The notes under the pieces are model-generated. The model saw only the letters and a program-made list of their open reading frames with translations. It had not been told where the DNA came from and did no database searches. From an uncultured Candidatus Saccharibacteria bacterium (GTDB taxonomy: Bacteria; Patescibacteriota; Minisyncoccia; UBA6257; JACRHW01), in NCBI GenBank assembly GCA_964388055.1, contig CAYLXU010000007.1, positions 13,661 through 29,037 on the forward strand: a DNA stretch of 15,377 bases, in the 5' to 3' direction. The position numbers were made by a program, and so were the translations under genes. Shown piece by piece: positions 240 through 9,575 of this stretch. Position 1 is the stretch's first letter; each line of letters starts with the position of its first letter.

Positions 240-1229
240 TTATGAAGTTGGGTAAATACACTCTTCTGGGGCTTTATCGCCCCGTAAACGAACAAATTGC
301 GGATGTCGCAACGCGCCAGAAGGAAATCTTCTCTGGTACTCAACCTGAACAACTAATGGATATGTTGCATGAGCAAAATCTTCACGCTCTGCATCGCTAA
401 AACCACCACCAACCTCGCCACATGAAACCATCTCTCCCGTCTGTGGATCTATCTGAGCAAGATATAATTTCCCCATTCTATCCTTGTTCTTTCCTGTTCC
501 ATACGTAAAACGCGTAGCTATGAAGTCATCCTCAAAATGAGGTTTCCACTTCCAACACCCATCGGGACGAATAGGCTGATCCTTCCTCCCATCAAGTCGA
601 AAAGCAGTTGGCTTTGTCCCATCGTAAAGAACGAGACCCTCCCACCCTTCTCTAAGAACCTGTTTCCGCGCCTTATTAAAGGAACAACTAAGTACAGGGA
701 CAGGGGAGATTGAAGAAACATGGGAACTGTTTTGATGTCCGCCAAACAAAGACTTAAGCATGTAAAGACGCTCCCTATATGGCTTGTCCGAAGTTATTCG
801 TCCCTCCCAAATAATAGGGTCAAAAATCATATACACGGCCTTACCAGCTTCGCTCTGAAGTGCGATAGCAGCCTCTGGCTTCGACTTCGCAATGCGGGTA
901 AGCATCTCGAACTCATCCCGACCACTATTATCGACCAACATCTCTCCATCAAAAAGAAAGTCTCCTGTAGGCAACCCTAGCCGCAAAAAGTCTTCACAAA
1001 TATGGGGATATAATGCAGTAACATCTTCGATCCCACGAGTATAGATCCTTACACGAGAGGAGGAAACCACTACTAAATGGCGATACCCATCTCTTTTGCG
1101 CGTGATGATCAAATCTCCTTGCTGCTCAAGTTCATACACCTTGCGATCTTCAACGCTGTGTTTTGGTTTAGCCGGAACAAAATTCTTATCAAGAGGATCG
1201 AGAGAAAAGGGGAGTATGTGCTGTAACAC
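240..1229 (-). CDS. ATP-dependent DNA ligase, small single-module type (329 aa). GTG start.
   Basis: Nucleotidyltransferase motifs: motif I KxDGxR (ITRKRDGYRH), motif III (FLFDGEMLV), motif IV (EGLVLY), motif V (WKWKP). SD GGAGGTG lies 5 nt upstream of the GTG start. Confidence 0.8.
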   Translation of the reverse strand: MLQHILPFSLDPLDKNFVPAKPKHSVEDRKVYELEQQGDLIITRKRDGYRHLVVVSSSRVRIYTRGIEDVTALYPHICEDFLRLGLPTGDFLFDGEMLVDNSGRDEFEMLTRIAKSKPEAAIALQSEAGKAVYMIFDPIIWEGRITSDKPYRERLYMLKSLFGGHQNSSHVSSISPVPVLSCSFNKARKQVLREGWEGLVLYDGTKPTAFRLDGRKDQPIRPDGCWKWKPHFEDDFIATRFTYGTGKNKDRMGKLYLAQIDPQTGEMVSCGEVGGGFSDAEREDFAHATYPLVVQVEYQRRFPSGALRHPQFVRLRGDKAPEECIYPTS

Positions 1230-3754: not shown

Positions 3755-3979
3755 ACCCGGTTATTACAATTTCGATTCGTAAAACGACATTTTTAAATAG
3801 CTCATGTGTGATCTATACATAGTCGAGATTATAGCAAAAAATGGTGTTCTTCTCTGTGCGTGAGCGCATATCGAAGTTGTAAAACCAGGCATGCTGCAAT
3901 AAACACATATGATATAACACGAAGCCTATACACAAAACAAATCCCTTACCTACATACATAGATGAGGTACAAAGAAAAA

Positions 3980-4048
3980 ATGTTTCACGTGAAACATTTC
4001 GTGAAACATCTTGACAATGTGTTTCACAAAATGTGAAACATGTTTCAC
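3980..4048. promoter_or_regulatory. Array B of the same operator-like motif. 3980-3997 is the perfect 18-bp palindrome ATGTTTCACGTGAAACAT. 4001-4009 is GTGAAACAT, followed by TTGACAAT at 4011-4018. 4019-4027 is gTGTTTCAC. 4033-4048 is the perfect palindrome GTGAAACATGTTTCAC.
   Basis: Direct reading. Six half-sites fall in 69 bp. The layout half-site / TTGACAAT / inverted half-site / 16-bp palindrome matches array A. Confidence 0.6.
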
Positions 4049-4058
4049 GGCGCGGTAA

Positions 4059-5537
4059 TCAAAGTGTCTTGCGCACATAATAGTCCACCGGTGCAAAATC
4101 ATCAGTAAGAATCGGTGTGTCATTTTCTACCTCTCCTTTCCATATCTGTTGCAAATATCCATTAATCTCCTCGTTGTCACTCTCAAAACTTGGAGACACG
4201 TCTGACTTTAGCGCGACCAGTATAATATTTTGTACGCGCGCGTTCTCTAATTTTCTTACAGGAAATAAATACACCTGAGGAAACACACTCTTGTATGTGG
4301 CATATTCAGCACGTAAAAATTCTCCCTGAACACCATTAATAGAAGAAATGATATTAATAATCGCGACCCCGTCGTCATGTAATGCACCAAATATTTTTTC
4401 CGTCGCCTCCCTTGTAGTGAGTTGATAGGGGATAGAATAAAGAGCATGAAACGCATCTCCAAAAATAACATCATATTTATTGCGAGTTGTGTTTAAAAAC
4501 GCTCTCGCATCCTCGTGAAAAATATTCAACCTTGGATCGTCTTTGAGATTAAAATAGCGTCGAGCTAACGCCGTTACCCCTTCATCAATCTCCACCACAT
4601 CAAGATACGCGTTGGGATATTGTTTTAAATAATCTCTTGGATATGTATACCCCGCACCACCTATCACAAGGGATTTTTTAATCTCCGGCTTGAAATGTTT
4701 TGCGATACGATAAAACTTGGTGTAGTCGAACACCAAGTCATCCTCTCCTTCTAGAAAAATGGCAGATTGCGTTCCAAACGGATCAAATGCCATGTTAAGA
4801 GTTTCTCTCTGTGTCTTAGAATCAACGCCCTTATAAATAAACACTCTGCTATATTTTGTATCTACATCAGCAACAAGAGATTTACCATACACAAGATGGG
4901 TACCGTTTTTAAAAAATAAAACGGTAAGAAAAAGTGCTATAAAAATTAATTTAGTTTTTAAAAACTTTTTTGAATCAACAGCAACCGCAACAAGAAGAAG
5001 GGTAAGCGCAAGTAAGATCAAAATTCTCTCCGAGCCAACATGAGGAATAAGAAGAAAACCTCCAAAGAATGTGCCAAAAATACTCCCAACAGTAGAAAGC
5101 GCATATAAATTTCCCGCCGTTGTTCCAGCAGTGTTTACGTTTTCTAATTTAAGCTTTAAAGCATAGGGAGAAATCATCCCCAACAACACGCTTGCCGGGG
5201 CAAATAAAATAAGCGCTGAAAAAAACGATGCAAATTCTATGCTTATCAAGCCCTGAAATGGGACAAGCACCATTCCTTTCATAAAAAGAGTGAACGCAAT
5301 GAGGAGAGCAGAGAAAAAAATAATCAACGAAAAAACTTCAATGCGAGGATTGTTGTCAGCCATTCTTCCACCAAACCAATATCCAAAACTTAGGCTTCCC
5401 AAAATCACCCCAATCAAACTAGTCCATACAAAAATAGAGGTACCTAAATAGGGGGCCAATATCCTCGAGCCAACAAGCTCAAAAATCATCACCACTGCCC
5501 CACATAAAAATACTGAGTATTCTAACTTATATCTCAT
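4059..5537 (-). CDS. Membrane-anchored spermidine/spermine synthase family protein (492 aa). An N-terminal multi-TM domain is fused to a C-terminal aminopropyltransferase-like domain.
   Basis: About 200 aa of hydrophobic helices are followed by a spermidine-synthase-like core. The core includes SLVIGGAGYTYPRDYL (a glycine-rich AdoMet-type loop) and DVIFGDAF. SD AGGAGA is upstream. Confidence 0.75.
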   Translation of the reverse strand: MRYKLEYSVFLCGAVVMIFELVGSRILAPYLGTSIFVWTSLIGVILGSLSFGYWFGGRMADNNPRIEVFSLIIFFSALLIAFTLFMKGMVLVPFQGLISIEFASFFSALILFAPASVLLGMISPYALKLKLENVNTAGTTAGNLYALSTVGSIFGTFFGGFLLIPHVGSERILILLALTLLLVAVAVDSKKFLKTKLIFIALFLTVLFFKNGTHLVYGKSLVADVDTKYSRVFIYKGVDSKTQRETLNMAFDPFGTQSAIFLEGEDDLVFDYTKFYRIAKHFKPEIKKSLVIGGAGYTYPRDYLKQYPNAYLDVVEIDEGVTALARRYFNLKDDPRLNIFHEDARAFLNTTRNKYDVIFGDAFHALYSIPYQLTTREATEKIFGALHDDGVAIINIISSINGVQGEFLRAEYATYKSVFPQVYLFPVRKLENARVQNIILVALKSDVSPSFESDNEEINGYLQQIWKGEVENDTPILTDDFAPVDYYVRKTL

Positions 5538-5593: not shown

Positions 5594-5624
5594 TTATAAA
5601 AACCCCTTCAGTGGGGTTTTTATA
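5594..5624 (-). terminator. Intrinsic terminator downstream of the 119-aa ORF (minus strand). It is structurally bidirectional.
   Basis: Minus strand reads AAAAACCCC-actgaa-GGGGTTTTTAT. The stem is cccc 5603-5606 paired with gggg 5613-5616. Confidence 0.65.
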
Positions 5625-5634
5625 ACAGGACAAA

Positions 5635-5994
5635 TTATGTATCAACCTCTTTCTTTAAAAGATTAATAACCTTCTCTCGCAACCCATATTCTTCGGGAAT
5701 GCGACGCAGATAATATTGCAATGTTTCAATAAATTCATTTGTAGTCATAATAGCTTTACGCTCTTCCTTGGTAAAAAACTTCTGTAGTTTCCCGCGCGCT
5801 TCATCGATACACTGAATCACTTCATCGACTTGATACTCTTTTTCTCCCTCTCCGTGTATCACAGAAAGTATTTTAAGTTCCTTCTTTAAAGCATCGAAAG
5901 AGTCTATGCCTTGAAACGGTGCCTCTGTTTTCGTCGCCCCCACTGCTTCTTGTTGTCTCTTTGTAGAAGCAGGAATTTGTTTTGGTTGTTCCAT
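5635..5994 (-). CDS. Hypothetical protein (119 aa), acidic and hydrophilic.
   Basis: Complete ORF, terminated by the 5594-5624 hairpin. No SD and no recognisable motifs. It lies directly downstream (minus strand) of tRNA-Val and the structured element. Confidence 0.5.
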   Translation of the reverse strand: MEQPKQIPASTKRQQEAVGATKTEAPFQGIDSFDALKKELKILSVIHGEGEKEYQVDEVIQCIDEARGKLQKFFTKEERKAIMTTNEFIETLQYYLRRIPEEYGLREKVINLLKKEVDT

Positions 5995-6041
5995 GAAAAA
6001 GTTAGGCCAAACAAAAGATTTAAATGAATACTCCTCGGCTT

Positions 6042-6060
6042 ACTCTTCAAAACTTTGGAC
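6042..6060. repeat. Left arm of a perfect 19-bp inverted repeat (ACTCTTCAAAACTTTGGAC).
   Basis: Its exact reverse complement lies at 6262-6280. Confidence 0.9.
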
Positions 6061-6061
6061 A

Positions 6062-6080
6062 GTGGACGGTACAGGACTCG
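6062..6080 (-). repeat. 19-nt direct duplicate of the 3' end of tRNA-Val (T-loop through discriminator, gtggacggtacaggactcg).
   Basis: 6062-6080 is identical to 6192-6210. The next 8 nt (gtcacaac) resemble the inverted complement of the adjacent tRNA segment (gtcacagg). Confidence 0.85.
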
Positions 6081-6190
6081 GTCACAACTTTTTTGCTTCG
6101 CAAAAAGTCGCGACCCCGCCTCCCCCGATAGTCATCGGGGTCCGGCTTTCGAGTCCTGGCGCAAACAAATAAATTTGCTTACTTACCCTC
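6081..6190 (-). other. Structured non-coding element between tRNA-Val and the 119-aa ORF. It may be an RNA (attenuator, processing or leader element) or an att-site remnant.
   Basis: Minus-strand hairpins are present. ACTTTTTGC-gaa-GCAAAAAAGT is the plus-strand inverted repeat at about 6086-6109, rc-mapped from plus cttttttgc(6087-6095)...gcaaaaag(6100-6107). CCCCGAT-gact-ATCGGGG comes from the plus-strand palindrome ccccgat(6124-6130)-agtc-atcgggg(6135-6141), and shares its CCCCG with the alternative pairing GACCCCG/CGGGGTC. CAGGACTCG pairs with CGAGTCCTG of the duplicated tRNA tail. Confidence 0.35.
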
Positions 6191-6192
6191 GG

Positions 6193-6265
6193 TGGACGGT
6201 ACAGGACTCGAACCTGTGACCCTCTCGGTGTAAACGAGATGCTCTACCAACTGAGCTAACCGTCC
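6193..6265 (-). tRNA. tRNA-Val, anticodon UAC, 73 nt. CCA is not encoded.
   Basis: Manual cloverleaf: acceptor GGACGGT/ACCGTCC, D-arm GCTC-AGTTGGTA-GAGC, anticodon arm TCTCG-TTTACAC-CGAGA (anticodon TAC), variable loop GGGTC, T-arm ACAGG-TTCGAGT-CCTGT, discriminator A. Confidence 0.9.
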
Positions 6266-6280
6266 AAAGTTTTGAAGAGT
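6262..6280. repeat. Right arm of the perfect 19-bp inverted repeat. It overlaps the first 4 nt of tRNA-Val.
   Basis: The reverse complement of 6262-6280 equals 6042-6060 exactly. Confidence 0.9.
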
Positions 6281-6285
6281 GTAAA

Positions 6286-6336
6286 CGGAGAAAATAAAGA
6301 CCTTTATTTTCTCCTCCAACGAACTGAGCTAAGCAT
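6286..6336. repeat. Perfect 13-bp-stem AT-rich hairpin (GGAGAAAATAAAG-acc-CTTTATTTTCTCC, 6286-6314). It is followed by a tRNA 5'-fragment-like sequence at 6318-6336.
   Basis: The stem was read directly. 6318-6336 (ccaacgaactgagctaagc) resembles the D-arm region of the adjacent tRNA (accaactgagctaaccg). Confidence 0.6.
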
Positions 6337-6387
6337 GCCTTTTATGTATTTCAAAATAAAACATTTTTCCCAAAAAATCAATATACA

Positions 6388-6416
6388 TTGACACGGCGCA
6401 TTGTTCAATGTAATAT
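6388..6416 (+). promoter_or_regulatory. Sigma70 promoter of the 406-aa membrane-protein gene. TTGACA (6388-6393), 17-nt spacer, TAATAT (6411-6416).
   Basis: Consensus -35, exact 17-nt spacer and a near-consensus -10. It lies about 43 nt upstream of the ATG at 6459. SD AAAGGGG is at 6443-6449. Confidence 0.6.
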
Positions 6417-6458
6417 ACTTTCGGCAGCTCATCGACAACCAGAAAGGGGTGTCATCAC

Positions 6459-7679
6459 ATGAAACGAAACATCGCGTTTTTTTTAAGTGTATTTCTTCTA
6501 GCACTTTTTGCGCCAGCCTACGCGACTCCTGAAAATCTTTCCCAGGAAGGAACTCGACTCTTTATACCAAGAGAGCAAGTGGAAGCCCTCCTCCCTATCA
6601 AGTACCGTATTGAGGGGATCATACAAGGAGCAGAAGGGCTGACAGACAAGACAAACGCAAACAAAGCGGTTACACAACAACTTTCTCTTGCAAAAAATAT
6701 TCTTGGACGCGAAACAAATGTGAAAGAACTCCTGAATCTTCAACCACCCCCACCCCCTCAGCTTACCCCGCTTCAAAAGGCGGCAGGTTTTGTAACATTT
6801 GTAAACATCCTTTGGGTCTTTGCGATCTGTTTGCTCCTGATGAGTCTCTGGTATCTTATCCCACGATGGTTCGGGTGGGTAGTGCTCATTTTCCAAATGA
6901 TTCCTGCAGAACTCTACGAACTGCTTCTCTATGCCGCAAGTTTTGGACTTGTCCTCTACGGTGCACAGCTGGATCCAGAAATCGGACAGTATCTTGCCCT
7001 CACCGGATGCCTCTTCCTTATGGGATCACTCACTTTCACGACGTACCTACACGAACTTAAACTAAGCGGAACAGGGTTCTCCGGAATCCTCTTTATTGCA
7101 TGGGCGCTTGCAGCAGTGATTTGCAACAGTCCGCTTGTAGGATTTCTCGCTATCATGGCGCTTATGAGTGCACTTGGGTTCAGCATCATTGTTACACCCA
7201 TGTGTTATGGAATCGGTTTTGAAGAAGAGAGTTTTGTGGGAAGAGCAACCTCTGCAGCATTTATTGTACTTGGCATCTTCGTAGTTCTCCGCATTACAGG
7301 AGCCCAACTCCCCTACATAATGGTATTCGAAAAAGGAGCCCTCTTTATGGGAAGTTTTGTGGGATACCTCGGACTTCTTATTGCATCGTCCCGGTGGTTC
7401 ATGAACCGTAGTCCCGAAGGATACATCGGGTTCCAGCTTCTCACTATTCTTGCCGGAGTTGCAGCGCTCTTTGTAGGATCTACGTGGAACATCGCAGAAC
7501 TTCAAAAAATCGGTGGAACATTCTTCGTCCTATACCTGATCGAAAAAACAATGGAAATTCCGGTAGACAAAAAAGAGCACTACGCATACATCCTACTCTT
7601 TCTCTCACTCCTTATCTATGGGCTTTGTATGTTTATCAAAACACATTTTGATCTCGTCCGCCCATATCTGTTTATGTAA
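6459..7679 (+). CDS. Integral membrane protein of unknown function (406 aa). A signal peptide and a roughly 110-aa extracytoplasmic domain are followed by a PPPPP linker and about 9 TM helices.
   Basis: N-terminus MKRNIAFFLSVFLLALFAPAYA-TPE has a signal-peptidase-I-like AYA|T site. QPPPPPQLTP follows, then repeated hydrophobic segments to the C-terminus. A promoter, SD and terminator are all present. Confidence 0.75.
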   Translation: MKRNIAFFLSVFLLALFAPAYATPENLSQEGTRLFIPREQVEALLPIKYRIEGIIQGAEGLTDKTNANKAVTQQLSLAKNILGRETNVKELLNLQPPPPPQLTPLQKAAGFVTFVNILWVFAICLLLMSLWYLIPRWFGWVVLIFQMIPAELYELLLYAASFGLVLYGAQLDPEIGQYLALTGCLFLMGSLTFTTYLHELKLSGTGFSGILFIAWALAAVICNSPLVGFLAIMALMSALGFSIIVTPMCYGIGFEEESFVGRATSAAFIVLGIFVVLRITGAQLPYIMVFEKGALFMGSFVGYLGLLIASSRWFMNRSPEGYIGFQLLTILAGVAALFVGSTWNIAELQKIGGTFFVLYLIEKTMEIPVDKKEHYAYILLFLSLLIYGLCMFIKTHFDLVRPYLFM

Positions 7680-7793: not shown

Positions 7794-9575
7794 TTACTCT
7801 GTTGCAACTTCCTGCTCTTCTTTTTTCTTATCATCATCTTTTACAGACATGCCATCAAGTATCTCTGAAGTAACCCCAATCTTTTCAAGAAGGTTTCCAA
7901 AACCAAGCGCCTTGGCTTTTGCAATAACATTAAAAAACATTTCTGGCGTAAGGTTTGCAAACTTATTAAGAGCCCCGCTACCACTTCCGTTGCTGTTCCC
8001 ACCAAAGTCATACATCCGAATCGAATCAACGCTTGAAAGCGGAGCAGCCATCTGCCCAAACACGTTCGCGAGACCTTGAGGACCGAGCGCCTTCGCAAGA
8101 GCGTCGCCAAGAGATTCCGCGACACGTGGTGCAGCATCAAGCACCTGGAGAAGTTTACCTGTCTGATCAAGTTGCGCAAGCGCCTTAGCAAGTTGCTCTT
8201 TACCCTTCGCTTCAGCAAGAAGTTTCGCCTCTGCACCCTTCGCTTCAGCCATAAGCTCTGCTTCCTTACCCGTTGCATTCGCAACAAGCTCTGCTTCAAC
8301 ACCCGCTGCCGCAGCAAGACGCTTTGCCTTTTCACCATCAGCTTCTGCAGTAAGCCTTGCACGCGTTGCATCCGCATCACCCTGACCACGTTTTGCAGTT
8401 GCCTCTGCATCCGCCTCAGCCTTCGTCTTAATGGCTTGTGCCTGTTTTGCCGCAGCCTCAAATGCTGCCTCTGCCTGAATAATCTGTTTTGATTTTTCTG
8501 CCTCTGCGGAAATAACTTGAGTCTTGCGCTCTGCCTCGGCCTTAATAATGGCGGATTCCCGCTCTGCCTCGGCAGGTTTAATTACTTGGAATTGAAGTTC
8601 TTTTTCTACACGCAGGGTTTCCTGCTCCGCAAGACGAATCTTTGACTCAGTCTCAGCAGCAAGAGCCTCAACCCTCTTCTGTCGCACTTCCTTATCACGC
8701 TCAGCAGTTGCAATAGCACCAGCCTGCTCGGCAATGGCACGCTCACGATCCGTAAGTGCCTTAAACTGGGCAACTTGAACGTCGCGCTCCTTCTGAGCCT
8801 GTGCAACAGCAACTGCGTTCTGGGCAGCAACAAGTTCGGCCTCTTTCTTTGCGTTACTTGCAGCAATATCCGCATCACGCGTCGCCTCGGCTTCACCGAT
8901 CTGCGCATCTCGCTTTACCTCAGCGGTACGCCTCTTGCCCAATGATTCAATATATCCAGACGTATCTGAAATTTGCTGAATGGTAAGAATAGTAACGCGC
9001 ACACCAATCTTCAGAAGCTCAGTCTCTGCACCAGAAAGGACCGCCCTATTAAGAGACTCACGATTTCCAATAAGGTTTTCAATGGTGAGCGTGCCAAGAA
9101 TGGAGCGCAGCTGACCCTCAAGGTTTTCCCGAATAATGGTATTAATGTCTTCGTCCTTTTTCCCCTCAAAGGTTCGCACCGCCGCAATCAGAGTTGCCAT
9201 ATCGGATCCAATCACAACGGTCGCCGTACCTCTAGCATTTACCATAACTCCGCCCTCAGTAGGAATATCTTTCACCTCGAGTGGGATAAGACGCGCATCG
9301 AGACGCAGCTCCGAATAGTCCTCAAAAAATGGCCACACAAGAGCACCACCACCCGTAAGAAGTCGGAATCCCAACTCTTCTTTCTTTTTTGTCCCATCGG
9401 CGCCAGTCACCTCATATGTGTTTTTCCGACCATAAATGATACCAACCCTGCTTGGCGGTACTCGCTTATACCTACTCGTGGCATAACGCGCTGCGCTAAA
9501 AAGTGCCAAACAAACGAGAAGTGCACCAATAATCAATCCAAGATTTGACATAACTACCTTAAGAAGTTCCTCCAT
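7794..9575 (-). CDS. Flotillin (SPFH/band-7 domain protein, FloT/YuaG-like), 593 aa.
   Basis: An N-terminal TM helix is followed by an SPFH domain and a long alanine/glutamate-rich coiled coil with the AEAE(A/K) flotillin repeats (for example AEAEKSKQIIQAEAAFEAAAKQAQAIKTKAEADAEA). The tail is G/S-rich. SD GGAAGGAGA is upstream. The gene sits 4 nt downstream of nfeD. Confidence 0.9.
   Translation of the reverse strand: MEELLKVVMSNLGLIIGALLVCLALFSAARYATSRYKRVPPSRVGIIYGRKNTYEVTGADGTKKKEELGFRLLTGGGALVWPFFEDYSELRLDARLIPLEVKDIPTEGGVMVNARGTATVVIGSDMATLIAAVRTFEGKKDEDINTIIRENLEGQLRSILGTLTIENLIGNRESLNRAVLSGAETELLKIGVRVTILTIQQISDTSGYIESLGKRRTAEVKRDAQIGEAEATRDADIAASNAKKEAELVAAQNAVAVAQAQKERDVQVAQFKALTDRERAIAEQAGAIATAERDKEVRQKRVEALAAETESKIRLAEQETLRVEKELQFQVIKPAEAERESAIIKAEAERKTQVISAEAEKSKQIIQAEAAFEAAAKQAQAIKTKAEADAEATAKRGQGDADATRARLTAEADGEKAKRLAAAAGVEAELVANATGKEAELMAEAKGAEAKLLAEAKGKEQLAKALAQLDQTGKLLQVLDAAPRVAESLGDALAKALGPQGLANVFGQMAAPLSSVDSIRMYDFGGNSNGSGSGALNKFANLTPEMFFNVIAKAKALGFGNLLEKIGVTSEILDGMSVKDDDKKKEEQEVATE

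Follow-up and report, generated by a model that had tools for sequence, protein, structure and literature searches.

A structured, probably mobile module between two copies of the tRNA-Val(TAC) tail in an uncultured Saccharibacteria bacterium

What separates tRNA-Val(TAC) from the open reading frame (ORF) downstream of it in an uncultured Candidatus Saccharibacteria bacterium, and how did it come to lie there? The window, by which we mean the whole stretch of DNA analysed (15,377 nucleotides of contig CAYLXU010000007.1), holds a single tRNA gene, tRNA-Val(TAC), at 6265..6191 on the minus strand (ARAGORN; Rfam tRNA 73.2 bits). The 110 nt behind it (6081-6190) had been described in an original prediction as a switch-like structured element upstream of a hypothetical 119-aa ORF (ORF119). 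We propose, with moderate confidence, that 6062-6190 represents one copy of a non-coding module that is defined by its structure, is probably mobile, targets the T-loop and 3' end of tRNA genes for insertion, and takes up its fold on the tRNA-sense strand. The family to which it would belong, modules of about 80-200 nt in the 3' flank of Patescibacteria tRNA genes, is apparently undescribed, and our literature searches found no description of the element. Coordinates of the element refer to the minus strand, the sense strand of the tRNA.

The duplicated tail and the fold between its copies

The last 19 nt of tRNA-Val (CGAGTCCTGTACCGTCCAC), which run from C56 of the T-loop to one base beyond the discriminator, are present twice as an exact direct repeat (6192-6210 and 6062-6080; none expected by chance), and the 111 nt between the two copies contain no ORF. 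The features of the region, in the order in which they would be transcribed, are as follows.

6191..6265, minus strand: intact tRNA-Val(TAC), whose last 19 nt (6192-6210) are the proximal tail copy
6161..6182, minus strand: H1, a weak AU/GU-rich hairpin (GUAAGCAAA-uuua-UUUGUUUGC) in the minimum-free-energy (MFE) fold, between the tRNA and the anti-tail
6148..6158, minus strand: anti-tail CAGGACTCGAA, an exact inverted copy of the T-loop and 3' T-stem strand (TTCGAGTCCTG); 5' strand of helix P1
6118..6146, minus strand: P2, with basal GCC/GGC, internal loop GGA/GA and apical hairpin CCCCGAU-gacu-AUCGGGG
6080..6117, minus strand: junction GG and P3, whose base GGUCGC/GUGACC has a conserved G.U pair and whose apical stem-loop varies; includes the motif GGCGGGGTCGC
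6062..6080, minus strand: distal tail copy CGAGTCCTGTACCGTCCAC, the exact 19-nt repeat, whose first 9 nt are the 3' strand of P1; a second assembly agrees
6042..6063, minus strand: original 3' trailer, 22 nt, 95% complementary to the leader and first tRNA bases (6259-6280)

Which of the two tails is the older? The trailer that pairs with the leader (duplex energy -35.7 kcal/mol) comes right after the distal copy, and the distal copy is thus the gene's original 3' end. From the tail duplication and the position of the trailer it follows that about 130 bp (one tail plus 111 nt) were inserted at the T-loop and that an intact tRNA was regenerated. An independent Logan assembly (L001) of a near-identical strain, with two single-nucleotide differences upstream, has the same junction of insert and distal tail, which rules out an assembly artefact. 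Integration into a tRNA gene classically leaves the 3' part of that gene directly repeated, so that an intact gene stands on one side and a fragment of it on the other (PMC9897764), and here the repeat covers 19 of 19 nt of the tRNA 3' part, starts at C56 of the T-loop, and has the intact gene and the fragment at opposite ends. Origin by simple tandem duplication was considered and rejected: the first 35 nt of the insert do not significantly resemble the sequence that follows the trailer (8 of 300 shuffles).

The inserted sequence is strongly structured. Segment 6081-6190 folds with -44.7 kcal/mol (z -4.83; 0 of 200 shuffles as good) and 6062-6158 with -50.7 kcal/mol (z -5.57), while the antisense strand of the region reaches a z of only -2.73; together with the family copies found elsewhere (see below), these values bear out the structured element of the original prediction and show it to be strand-specific and conserved. 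Its closing helix P1 is formed by CAGGACTCG (6158..6150) and CGAGTCCTG (6080..6072), with a pair probability of 0.90 when the element is folded alone. This is the 9-bp long-range pairing that had been proposed to use the duplicated tail; it is an exact inverted repeat and proves to be the defining feature of the family. Over its full 11 nt the anti-tail is exactly complementary to TTCGAGTCCTG of the tRNA itself (none expected by chance).

Not all of the proposed helices fared as well. Two mutually exclusive GC pairings had been described, and both exist in the sequence, but the P2 apical helix CCCCGAT-gact-ATCGGGG (6140..6123) has a mean pair probability of 0.97 in the thermodynamic ensemble and its supposed competitor, GACCCCG/CGGGGTC, one of about 1e-6, so that the competition is nominal; nor is the latter helix found in other family members. 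Similarly, the AT hairpin ACTTTTTGC-gaa-GCAAAAAAGT at 6108..6087 is present, but its pairing needs one bulged nucleotide, and it forms just the tip of the 16-bp P3 stem GGUCGCGACUUUUUGC/GCAAAAAAGUUGUGACC (6115..6080). In the thermodynamic model the region's one genuine switch is a different one, namely two identical tails competing for one anti-tail (P1 versus an 11-bp helix with the proximal tail). When the whole precursor is modelled, the anti-tail pairs preferentially with the tail inside the tRNA (0.96) and not with the distal copy; the preference is that of a purely thermodynamic model, and any role of it in vivo, where the cloverleaf folds first, would be hypothetical.

Known RNA families do not account for the element. 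In an Rfam covariance-model scan of the window only tRNA reaches its gathering score, and matches at E<=10 in 5900-6500 are at chance level. The suggested kinship with Y-RNAs and other tRNA-like small RNAs is not upheld: neither Y_RNA nor YrlA matches, and the best hit of this kind is Tymo_tRNA-like, on the opposite strand, at E=3. In P1, which had been seen as mimicking a T-arm-like helix, the T-loop sequence is itself paired, and this leaves the modules without any mimic of the T-loop/D-loop elbow.

Related modules behind other tRNA genes

Is the element peculiar to this locus? Related loci were sought by a scan of GTDB genomes with the tRNA tail, then by short-word BLAST of the insert, which gave a collinear match to L102, and then by reading of the loci. 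Units were found behind several tRNA genes, and no Rfam family accounts for the elements at the related loci.

L102 (Parcubacteria), behind tRNA-Leu(GAG): two full units and one partial
L102, behind tRNA-Arg(TCT): unit present
L013 (Parcubacteria, related to L102), behind tRNA-Arg(TCT) and tRNA-Leu(GAG): units present
L065, L093 and L033 (Saccharibacteria), behind tRNA-Gly(GCC): units present
L077 (Paceibacterota metagenome-assembled genome, MAG), behind tRNA-Val(CAC): unit present
Window, behind tRNA-Val(TAC): one copy, the only one in 15 kb

The units share one order of parts: tRNA tail; usually a bidirectional terminator; anti-tail; AAA...; one or more P2 hairpins; GGCGGGGTCGC; P3; GTGACC; and the direct tail, which is often followed by a second terminator. 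The window copy has all of the family motifs (P2 with its GGA/GA loop, GGCGGGGTCGC, and the P3 base GGUCGC/GUGACC, on the tRNA-sense strand), and the core motifs are conserved from Saccharibacteria to Parcubacteria. In the place where the units of L102, L013, L065 and L093 have a terminator hairpin, the window has H1, which fails the terminator scan. The anti-tail is in each case an inverted copy of the T-loop and 3' T-stem of the local tRNA, extending in some copies into the acceptor strand. Thus the arms, inverted as well as direct, match the local tRNA at every locus (CCTG at Val, CCCC at Leu, AATCG for TTCGATT T-loops), the anti-tail doing so at nine loci besides the window. In L065 the closing helix comprises the T-stem and five acceptor pairs, with GCUCCA left over as a 3' overhang. 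T54 is always the end of the inverted arm, and the direct arm begins at about position 56, so that the boundary of the module is fixed in the T-loop.

Every copy, when folded independently (MFE), assumes the same three-way junction P1-P2-P3. RNAalifold analysis of the window copy with two copies from L102 gives 31 pairs, 12 of them with compensatory double changes; for the three Saccharibacteria copies it gives 48 pairs (14 compensatory), including a hairpin in which an invariant GAAUACUUGGA loop sits on covarying stems. For example, P2 changes from GCC/GGC to AAC/GUU and shows further compensatory changes in its apical stem, and in P3 double changes affect 13 of 16 pairs, with the basal G.U pair kept in 8 of 10 copies. 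Trained on three copies, among them the window copy (91.9 bits), a covariance model recovers seven others at E 2e-5 to 4e-8, each on the same strand as its adjacent tRNA. In a 10-copy alignment 94.6% of the cells are standard pairs, compared with 67% in shuffles and about 40% in slid-partner controls, and 26 of the 31 pairs have changed on both sides; none of 500 shuffles reaches any of these measures. The covariation that might have been expected among orthologues of the region is, then, seen among family copies, whereas no orthologous locus was found for the window. The fold of the tRNA-sense strand is the more stable one in 12 of 12 copies (mean difference from the complement 8.5 kcal/mol), and this strand has 31 G.U pairs versus 8. 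Given this stability of the sense strand and its excess of G.U pairs, the constraint acts on one single strand, most simply RNA.

The number of units differs between related genomes. L013 and L102 have common flanks at tRNA-Leu and at tRNA-Arg, and what differs is the set of units between the tRNA and a conserved distal terminator: behind tRNA-Leu, L102 has about 300 nt more units than L013, placed directly at the tRNA tail, and behind tRNA-Arg, L013 has about 150 nt more than L102, a duplicated terminator included. The P3 variants have changed places. One (GTACTTATGAGCGAAG.GAATTAGTAAC) is at Arg in L013 and at Leu in L102, and is found also in L077; another (GAGAAATTTTT...) accompanies Leu in L013 and Arg in L102. 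Decay has affected the older, distal tails, and in the Patescibacteria DNA examined about 9 of roughly 45 tRNA genes carry a unit. To judge from these sequences, the pattern looks like repeated insertion at the tRNA tail and recombination among copies, not like a universal tRNA-processing device.

Possible origin and role of the modules

How might such a unit reach the tail of a tRNA gene? We propose that recombination within the T-loop-to-3'-end part of tRNA-Val brought the unit in, that the proximal tail regenerated the gene, and that the old tail, with its trailer still attached, was pushed 130 bp downstream. On the tRNA-sense strand, most simply in a tRNA read-through transcript, the anti-tail would then pair with the displaced tail as P1 and close the three-way junction. 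As no unit encodes a protein, the modules, mobile now or formerly, would have been mobilised in trans, and the conserved core may be what the responsible recombination or processing machinery recognises. In the window the module may serve as a folded spacer in a tRNA-Val/ORF119 co-transcript, its own tail copy keeping the anti-tail off the tRNA. The empty site is predicted to read ...ACAGGTT-CGAGTCCTGTACCGTCCAC-TGTCCAAAG, with the full tRNA upstream, and the circle or excision junction ...GTTGTGAC-CGAGTCCTGTACCGTCCAC-CGAGGGTAAG. The observations behind this proposal are the duplication and its polarity, the fold, the family membership, the compensatory variation, the strand bias, the matching of arms to tRNA and the differences in unit number; the mechanism of insertion we infer. 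The fixed T-loop boundary, the tail duplication and the tandem arrays resemble site-specific integration into tRNA genes. Such integration, leaving direct repeats of the 3' part, was reportedly described by Williams (2002, NAR 30:866).

With which known systems do the modules compare? Like tRNA attachment (att) sites, they have a repeat that starts in the T-loop, an intact proximal tRNA, a distal fragment, tandem arrays and a content that varies between relatives; unlike them, the window module measures only 111 nt, has neither integrase nor cargo, and combines a conserved structured core with an inverted tail that matches the local tRNA. To our knowledge, none of the latter features (small size without integrase, structured core, local-tRNA inverted tail) belongs to the described tRNA-integrating phages, integrative and conjugative elements (ICEs) or islands. 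MITEs (miniature inverted-repeat transposable elements) and cis-mobilisable elements (CIMEs), the latter being att-flanked, cis-mobilisable remnants of ICEs, are similarly small and non-coding, with terminal inverted repeats (here anti-tail and tail), diverged and shuffled copies, and presumable mobilisation in trans. However, the terminal inverted repeats of the modules copy the target tRNA and vary with it, the direct repeat of at least 19 nt (19 nt in the window) overlaps one of them and hence differs from a short target-site duplication, and a strand-asymmetric fold with conserved G.U pairs is not expected of the end of a double-stranded DNA transposon.

Integron attC sites offer a third comparison. 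In both, imperfect inverted repeats close a variable, sometimes branched centre, structure matters more than sequence, folding is strand-specific, arrays form beside a fixed primary site, and sizes are similar (about 60-150 nt). In contrast to attC sites, the modules lack RYYYAAC/GTTRRRY core sites, their arms being CAGGACTCG/CGAGTCCTG in the window; their primary site is the T-loop and tail of a tRNA; and they have a conserved GGCGGGGTCGC...GTGACC core. The ORFs of the window contain no integron integrase domain. The way in which P1 recreates the duplex tRNA tail on one strand is reminiscent of attC, as an analogy only. Parallels also exist with tRNA-like RNA modules (bacterial Y RNA/YrlA, viral 3' tRNA-like structures, mascRNA-type processing signals), which likewise have a long end-to-end helix and re-use genuine T-stem and acceptor sequence, and some module copies end in a tRNA-like 3' overhang; the modules differ in the missing elbow mimic, in matching no Rfam family, and in being physically linked to the parent tRNA gene.

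Three further identities were rejected. A group I intron has 200 nt or more and interrupts the tRNA at the anticodon loop, where the published cases from Patescibacteria tRNA genes sit (PMC13011429); the module has about 100 nt, lies behind an uninterrupted tRNA with its boundary in the T-loop, and gives no Intron_gpI match. Hammerhead and other small ribozymes have no Rfam match here, and the GAUGA of P2 is not conserved. T-box-like sensing of tRNA was rejected since the anti-tail targets paired parts of the tRNA.

Could the region instead be the inert scar of a large integrative element (phage, ICE or island) that entered tRNA-Val and was then nearly all deleted, leaving attL and attR 111 nt apart and the hairpins as leftovers of its att arms? 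The direct repeat from the T-loop and the polarity of leader and trailer fit such a history, and the original prediction had itself named an integration scar as the finding that would speak against it. The evidence lies between the two. The insertion signature is present, yet what was inserted is no random debris and proves to be a module with a conserved structure: its 111 nt match the covariance model of a family that occurs at other tRNAs and in other genomes with compensatory changes, all members observed are small, and no full-length, integrase-bearing parent was found between any pair of tails. Nor did exact-match scans with the insert core and both junctions give any match in viral contigs (0) or in metagenome contigs (0). 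A scan of metagenomes with the tail-trailer junction gave a single chance match in a repeat-protein gene, no attP-like junction was found in the viral contigs scanned, a degenerate core pattern met only GC-rich chance matches there, none with an inverted arm, and BLAST against a phage collection returned matches to the tRNA only. We regard an inert scar as improbable. We give still less credence, very little in fact, to a riboswitch, attenuator or conformational switch controlling ORF119, the role first suggested. The position of a highly structured element upstream of a same-strand ORF would suit it, as would the real competition of distal-tail P1 with the proximal-tail helix; yet there is no riboswitch or attenuator match in Rfam even at E<=10, a terminator scan of 5900-6550 found 0 terminator-like sites, and the GC alternative is neither populated nor conserved. 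The supposed link to the downstream gene also fails across the family, whose members are defined by the upstream tRNA, are in several cases bracketed by terminators, and precede no particular gene, ORF119 itself being an orphan.

A more serious rival, though one that we still hold to be unlikely, is an RNA selected by the host, in which the junction would act as a cis-acting domain of tRNA read-through transcripts or as a small stable RNA. Its closing helix would mimic the stack of acceptor and T-stem and end in a genuine tRNA 3' tail, and it might signal tRNA-like processing or punctuation to RNase Z, RNase P or the CCA-adding enzyme, stabilise the RNA downstream, or offer a scaffold to which proteins bind. 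This explanation accounts for the compensatory changes and the strand bias equally well: strand-specific folding in 12 of 12 copies, the enrichment in G.U pairs, the conserved G.U pair of P3, the conserved loops on covarying stems (such as GAAUACUUGGA in three Saccharibacteria copies) and the core motifs kept from Saccharibacteria to Parcubacteria are all what it would lead one to expect, as are the closing helix and 3' overhang of L065 and the absence of a terminator between the window module and either the tRNA or ORF119. What it does not readily explain is the patchy distribution over about a fifth of the tRNA genes, the tandem arrays, degenerate copies and unit numbers that vary between related genomes, the frequent decay of distal tails, and the bracketing of several copies by bidirectional terminators, which argues against efficient transcription.

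Several other points weigh against a mobile module. No recombinase, reverse transcriptase or other mobilising gene was identified beside any copy, and the window, whose 111 nt between the repeats have no ORF, contains no integrase among its ORFs. A double-stranded circle of 130-200 bp would be an awkward recombination intermediate. A search through flanking proteins and by scans found no empty site or orthologous locus for the window's tRNA-Val (homologues of the 406-aa neighbour reach at most 51% identity, without synteny, and those of the spermidine-synthase-like neighbour at most 66%, with no tRNA-Val or element nearby), the collections searched containing no close relative of the window's species, and insertion at this locus is consequently read from the repeat and its polarity alone. 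The copies available number about 13, from about 8 genomes; the 10-copy alignment was fitted to the covariance model; and transcription of the module is predicted from sequence. Finally, about 150 kb of further Parcubacteria DNA, reached through homologues of the 406-aa protein, yielded only a core-less anti-tail (L267, see below) and one junction that is independent of tRNA (L268). The latter, a three-way junction in a Niyogibacteria MAG (1125-1205, minus strand), lies between ftsW and rpoB, away from any tRNA; it has the P2 hairpin CGGAGCGCGACGGCGCGAG in common with L102 and L013 units, and its closing stem of 16-18 bp is unrelated to any tRNA.

What kind of entity might the modules be? We tentatively raise the possibility of an undescribed Patescibacteria class, either homing to the tRNA T-loop and 3' end as a mobile element or selfish structured RNA, or consisting of RNAs that mimic a tRNA minihelix. 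In homing, the anti-tail would be the guide that matches the target, the folded single strand the substrate of recombination or retro-homing, P1 a recreation of the duplex tRNA tail, and P2 and P3 the recognition core; the equally novel alternative would be a minihelix mimic processed by the tRNA maturation machinery. The genomes of Patescibacteria (also called CPR) are tiny, yet the modules are tolerated behind roughly one fifth of the sampled tRNA genes. Mobile units would represent a new route of tRNA-gene colonisation, by a protein-free unit with arms fitted to each target, and would provide a handle on an as yet unrecognised recombination or retro-homing activity in an uncultivated phylum; host RNAs would constitute a new structured class tied to tRNA 3' ends. 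In practice the modules account for pseudo-fragments of tRNA tails, and for contigs that break at tRNA loci, in CPR MAGs, and the covariance model built from the copies can be used phylum-wide.

Probable transcription unit, neighbouring genes and further loci

The remaining features of the unit to which the module appears to belong lie upstream of the tRNA and downstream of the trailer.

6266..6408, minus strand: upstream context of the transcription unit, with promoter-like sites, a tRNA-Val-like 5' fragment, a hairpin, the anticodon-loop remnant CGTTTACAC and a 15-nt leader
about 6351-6408, minus strand: promoter region, with promoter-like sites
5994..5635, minus strand: 119-aa ORF (from the ORF list), an orphan
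5620..5597, minus strand: intrinsic-terminator-like hairpin, an inverted repeat followed by a T run, right after the stop of ORF119

Because no terminator-like site lies between the promoter region and 5620..5597, co-transcription is likely, and the tRNA, module and ORF119 probably form one predicted transcript. The 119-aa ORF was said to lack a Shine-Dalgarno sequence, and this is confirmed near its ATG, the only AGGAG lying about 40 nt upstream. It has no homologue except itself among 5.8 billion proteins; it would be an orphan gene or, failing that, a part of the tRNA transcript that does not code.

Upstream of tRNA-Val, a tRNA-Val-like 5' fragment (acceptor 5' strand and D arm) is found at 6338..6319 on the minus strand, followed by a hairpin of variable sequence (6314..6287) and by CGTTTAC(A), which corresponds to the anticodon loop up to about nt 37. 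The arrangement of fragment, hairpin and anticodon loop, with a TTGATT -35-like box upstream, is conserved in two other Parcubacteria, L013 (3640-3700) and L102 (about 4400-4470). These fragments (6287-6338) resemble an older copy of tRNA-Val that was divided at the canonical 37/38 position and would now be part of the leader. Behind tRNA-Val(TAC) in L013 (3690-3880) and L102 (4455-4660) lie one or two direct 3' tRNA fragments that begin at about nt 38-41 and have trailers of their own. The order of the two trailers is swapped between these genomes, each is complementary to a leader segment, and the distal trailer of L102 is the perfect complement of the L013 leader, which suggests nested or shuffled leader-tRNA-trailer cassettes.

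Some further loci resemble parts of the module. In L267 (8975-9055) a tRNA-Asp tail is followed by a bidirectional terminator and a 16-nt inverted tail (GCGACCGGATTTGAAC) with neither P2/P3 core nor direct tail; an anti-tail can therefore exist alone. Hairpin loops of the CAGCAG type recur across modules. In L065 (about 4620-4730) and L093 (about 2350-2456) the first 12-13 nt of tRNA-Val (GGGACGGTTAGCT) are directly copied about 100 nt upstream with hairpins in between, a mirror-image duplication at the 5' end, and small hairpins of the TTTGCTAAAGC type recur between the clustered tRNAs of both. Outside Patescibacteria, six tRNA-Val(GAC) loci of Oscillospiraceae/Faecalibacterium (L042, L098, L082, L020, L114 and L113) have, beyond the terminator, the full tRNA 3' end repeated in inverted orientation, CCA complement included (TGGTGGGCGGTACAGGACTCGAAC), and then a conserved GC-rich, hairpin-rich core that is sometimes tandem; L113 also has a 25-nt direct tail copy 142 nt downstream. 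These modules, which have no Rfam match, may be analogous tRNA-tail-flanked modules.

The neighbours of the unit in the window are ordinary genes: an ATP-dependent ligase, a Mur ligase, a fused MFS/spermidine synthase, SPFH, dCTP deaminase, ThyA and DHFR. The 406-aa ORF that adjoins the tRNA has homologues under the names Candidatus Paceibacterota, Yanofskybacteria and Niyogibacteria, the nearest other than itself at 51% identity. The window is read as a piece of chromosome from a Parcubacteria/Paceibacterota-like member of the Patescibacteria. On Yanofskybacteria-like contigs (L246-L251) the homologue lies in a block with a large serine recombinase, an HATPase protein and a PIF1-type helicase, whose gene content suggests a mobile or prophage-like context; the window's 406-aa ORF, unlike these, adjoins the promoter region of tRNA-Val.

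Finally, we note repeats elsewhere in the window. Palindromic motifs (AAATGTTTCGCGTGAAACATTT and TGTTTCACA..TGTGAAACA) recur in two intergenic regions, 1-202 and 3971-4050; within these, 52 nt are exactly duplicated in tandem at 1-104, and 118-160 matches 4008-4050 in inverted orientation over 43 nt. The motifs resemble operators at which one regulator might act on two promoter regions. The SPFH/Band-7 gene (7794-9575, minus strand) contains five tandem repeats of 33 nt (11 codons) at 8196-8360, with 64-79% identity to the first copy.

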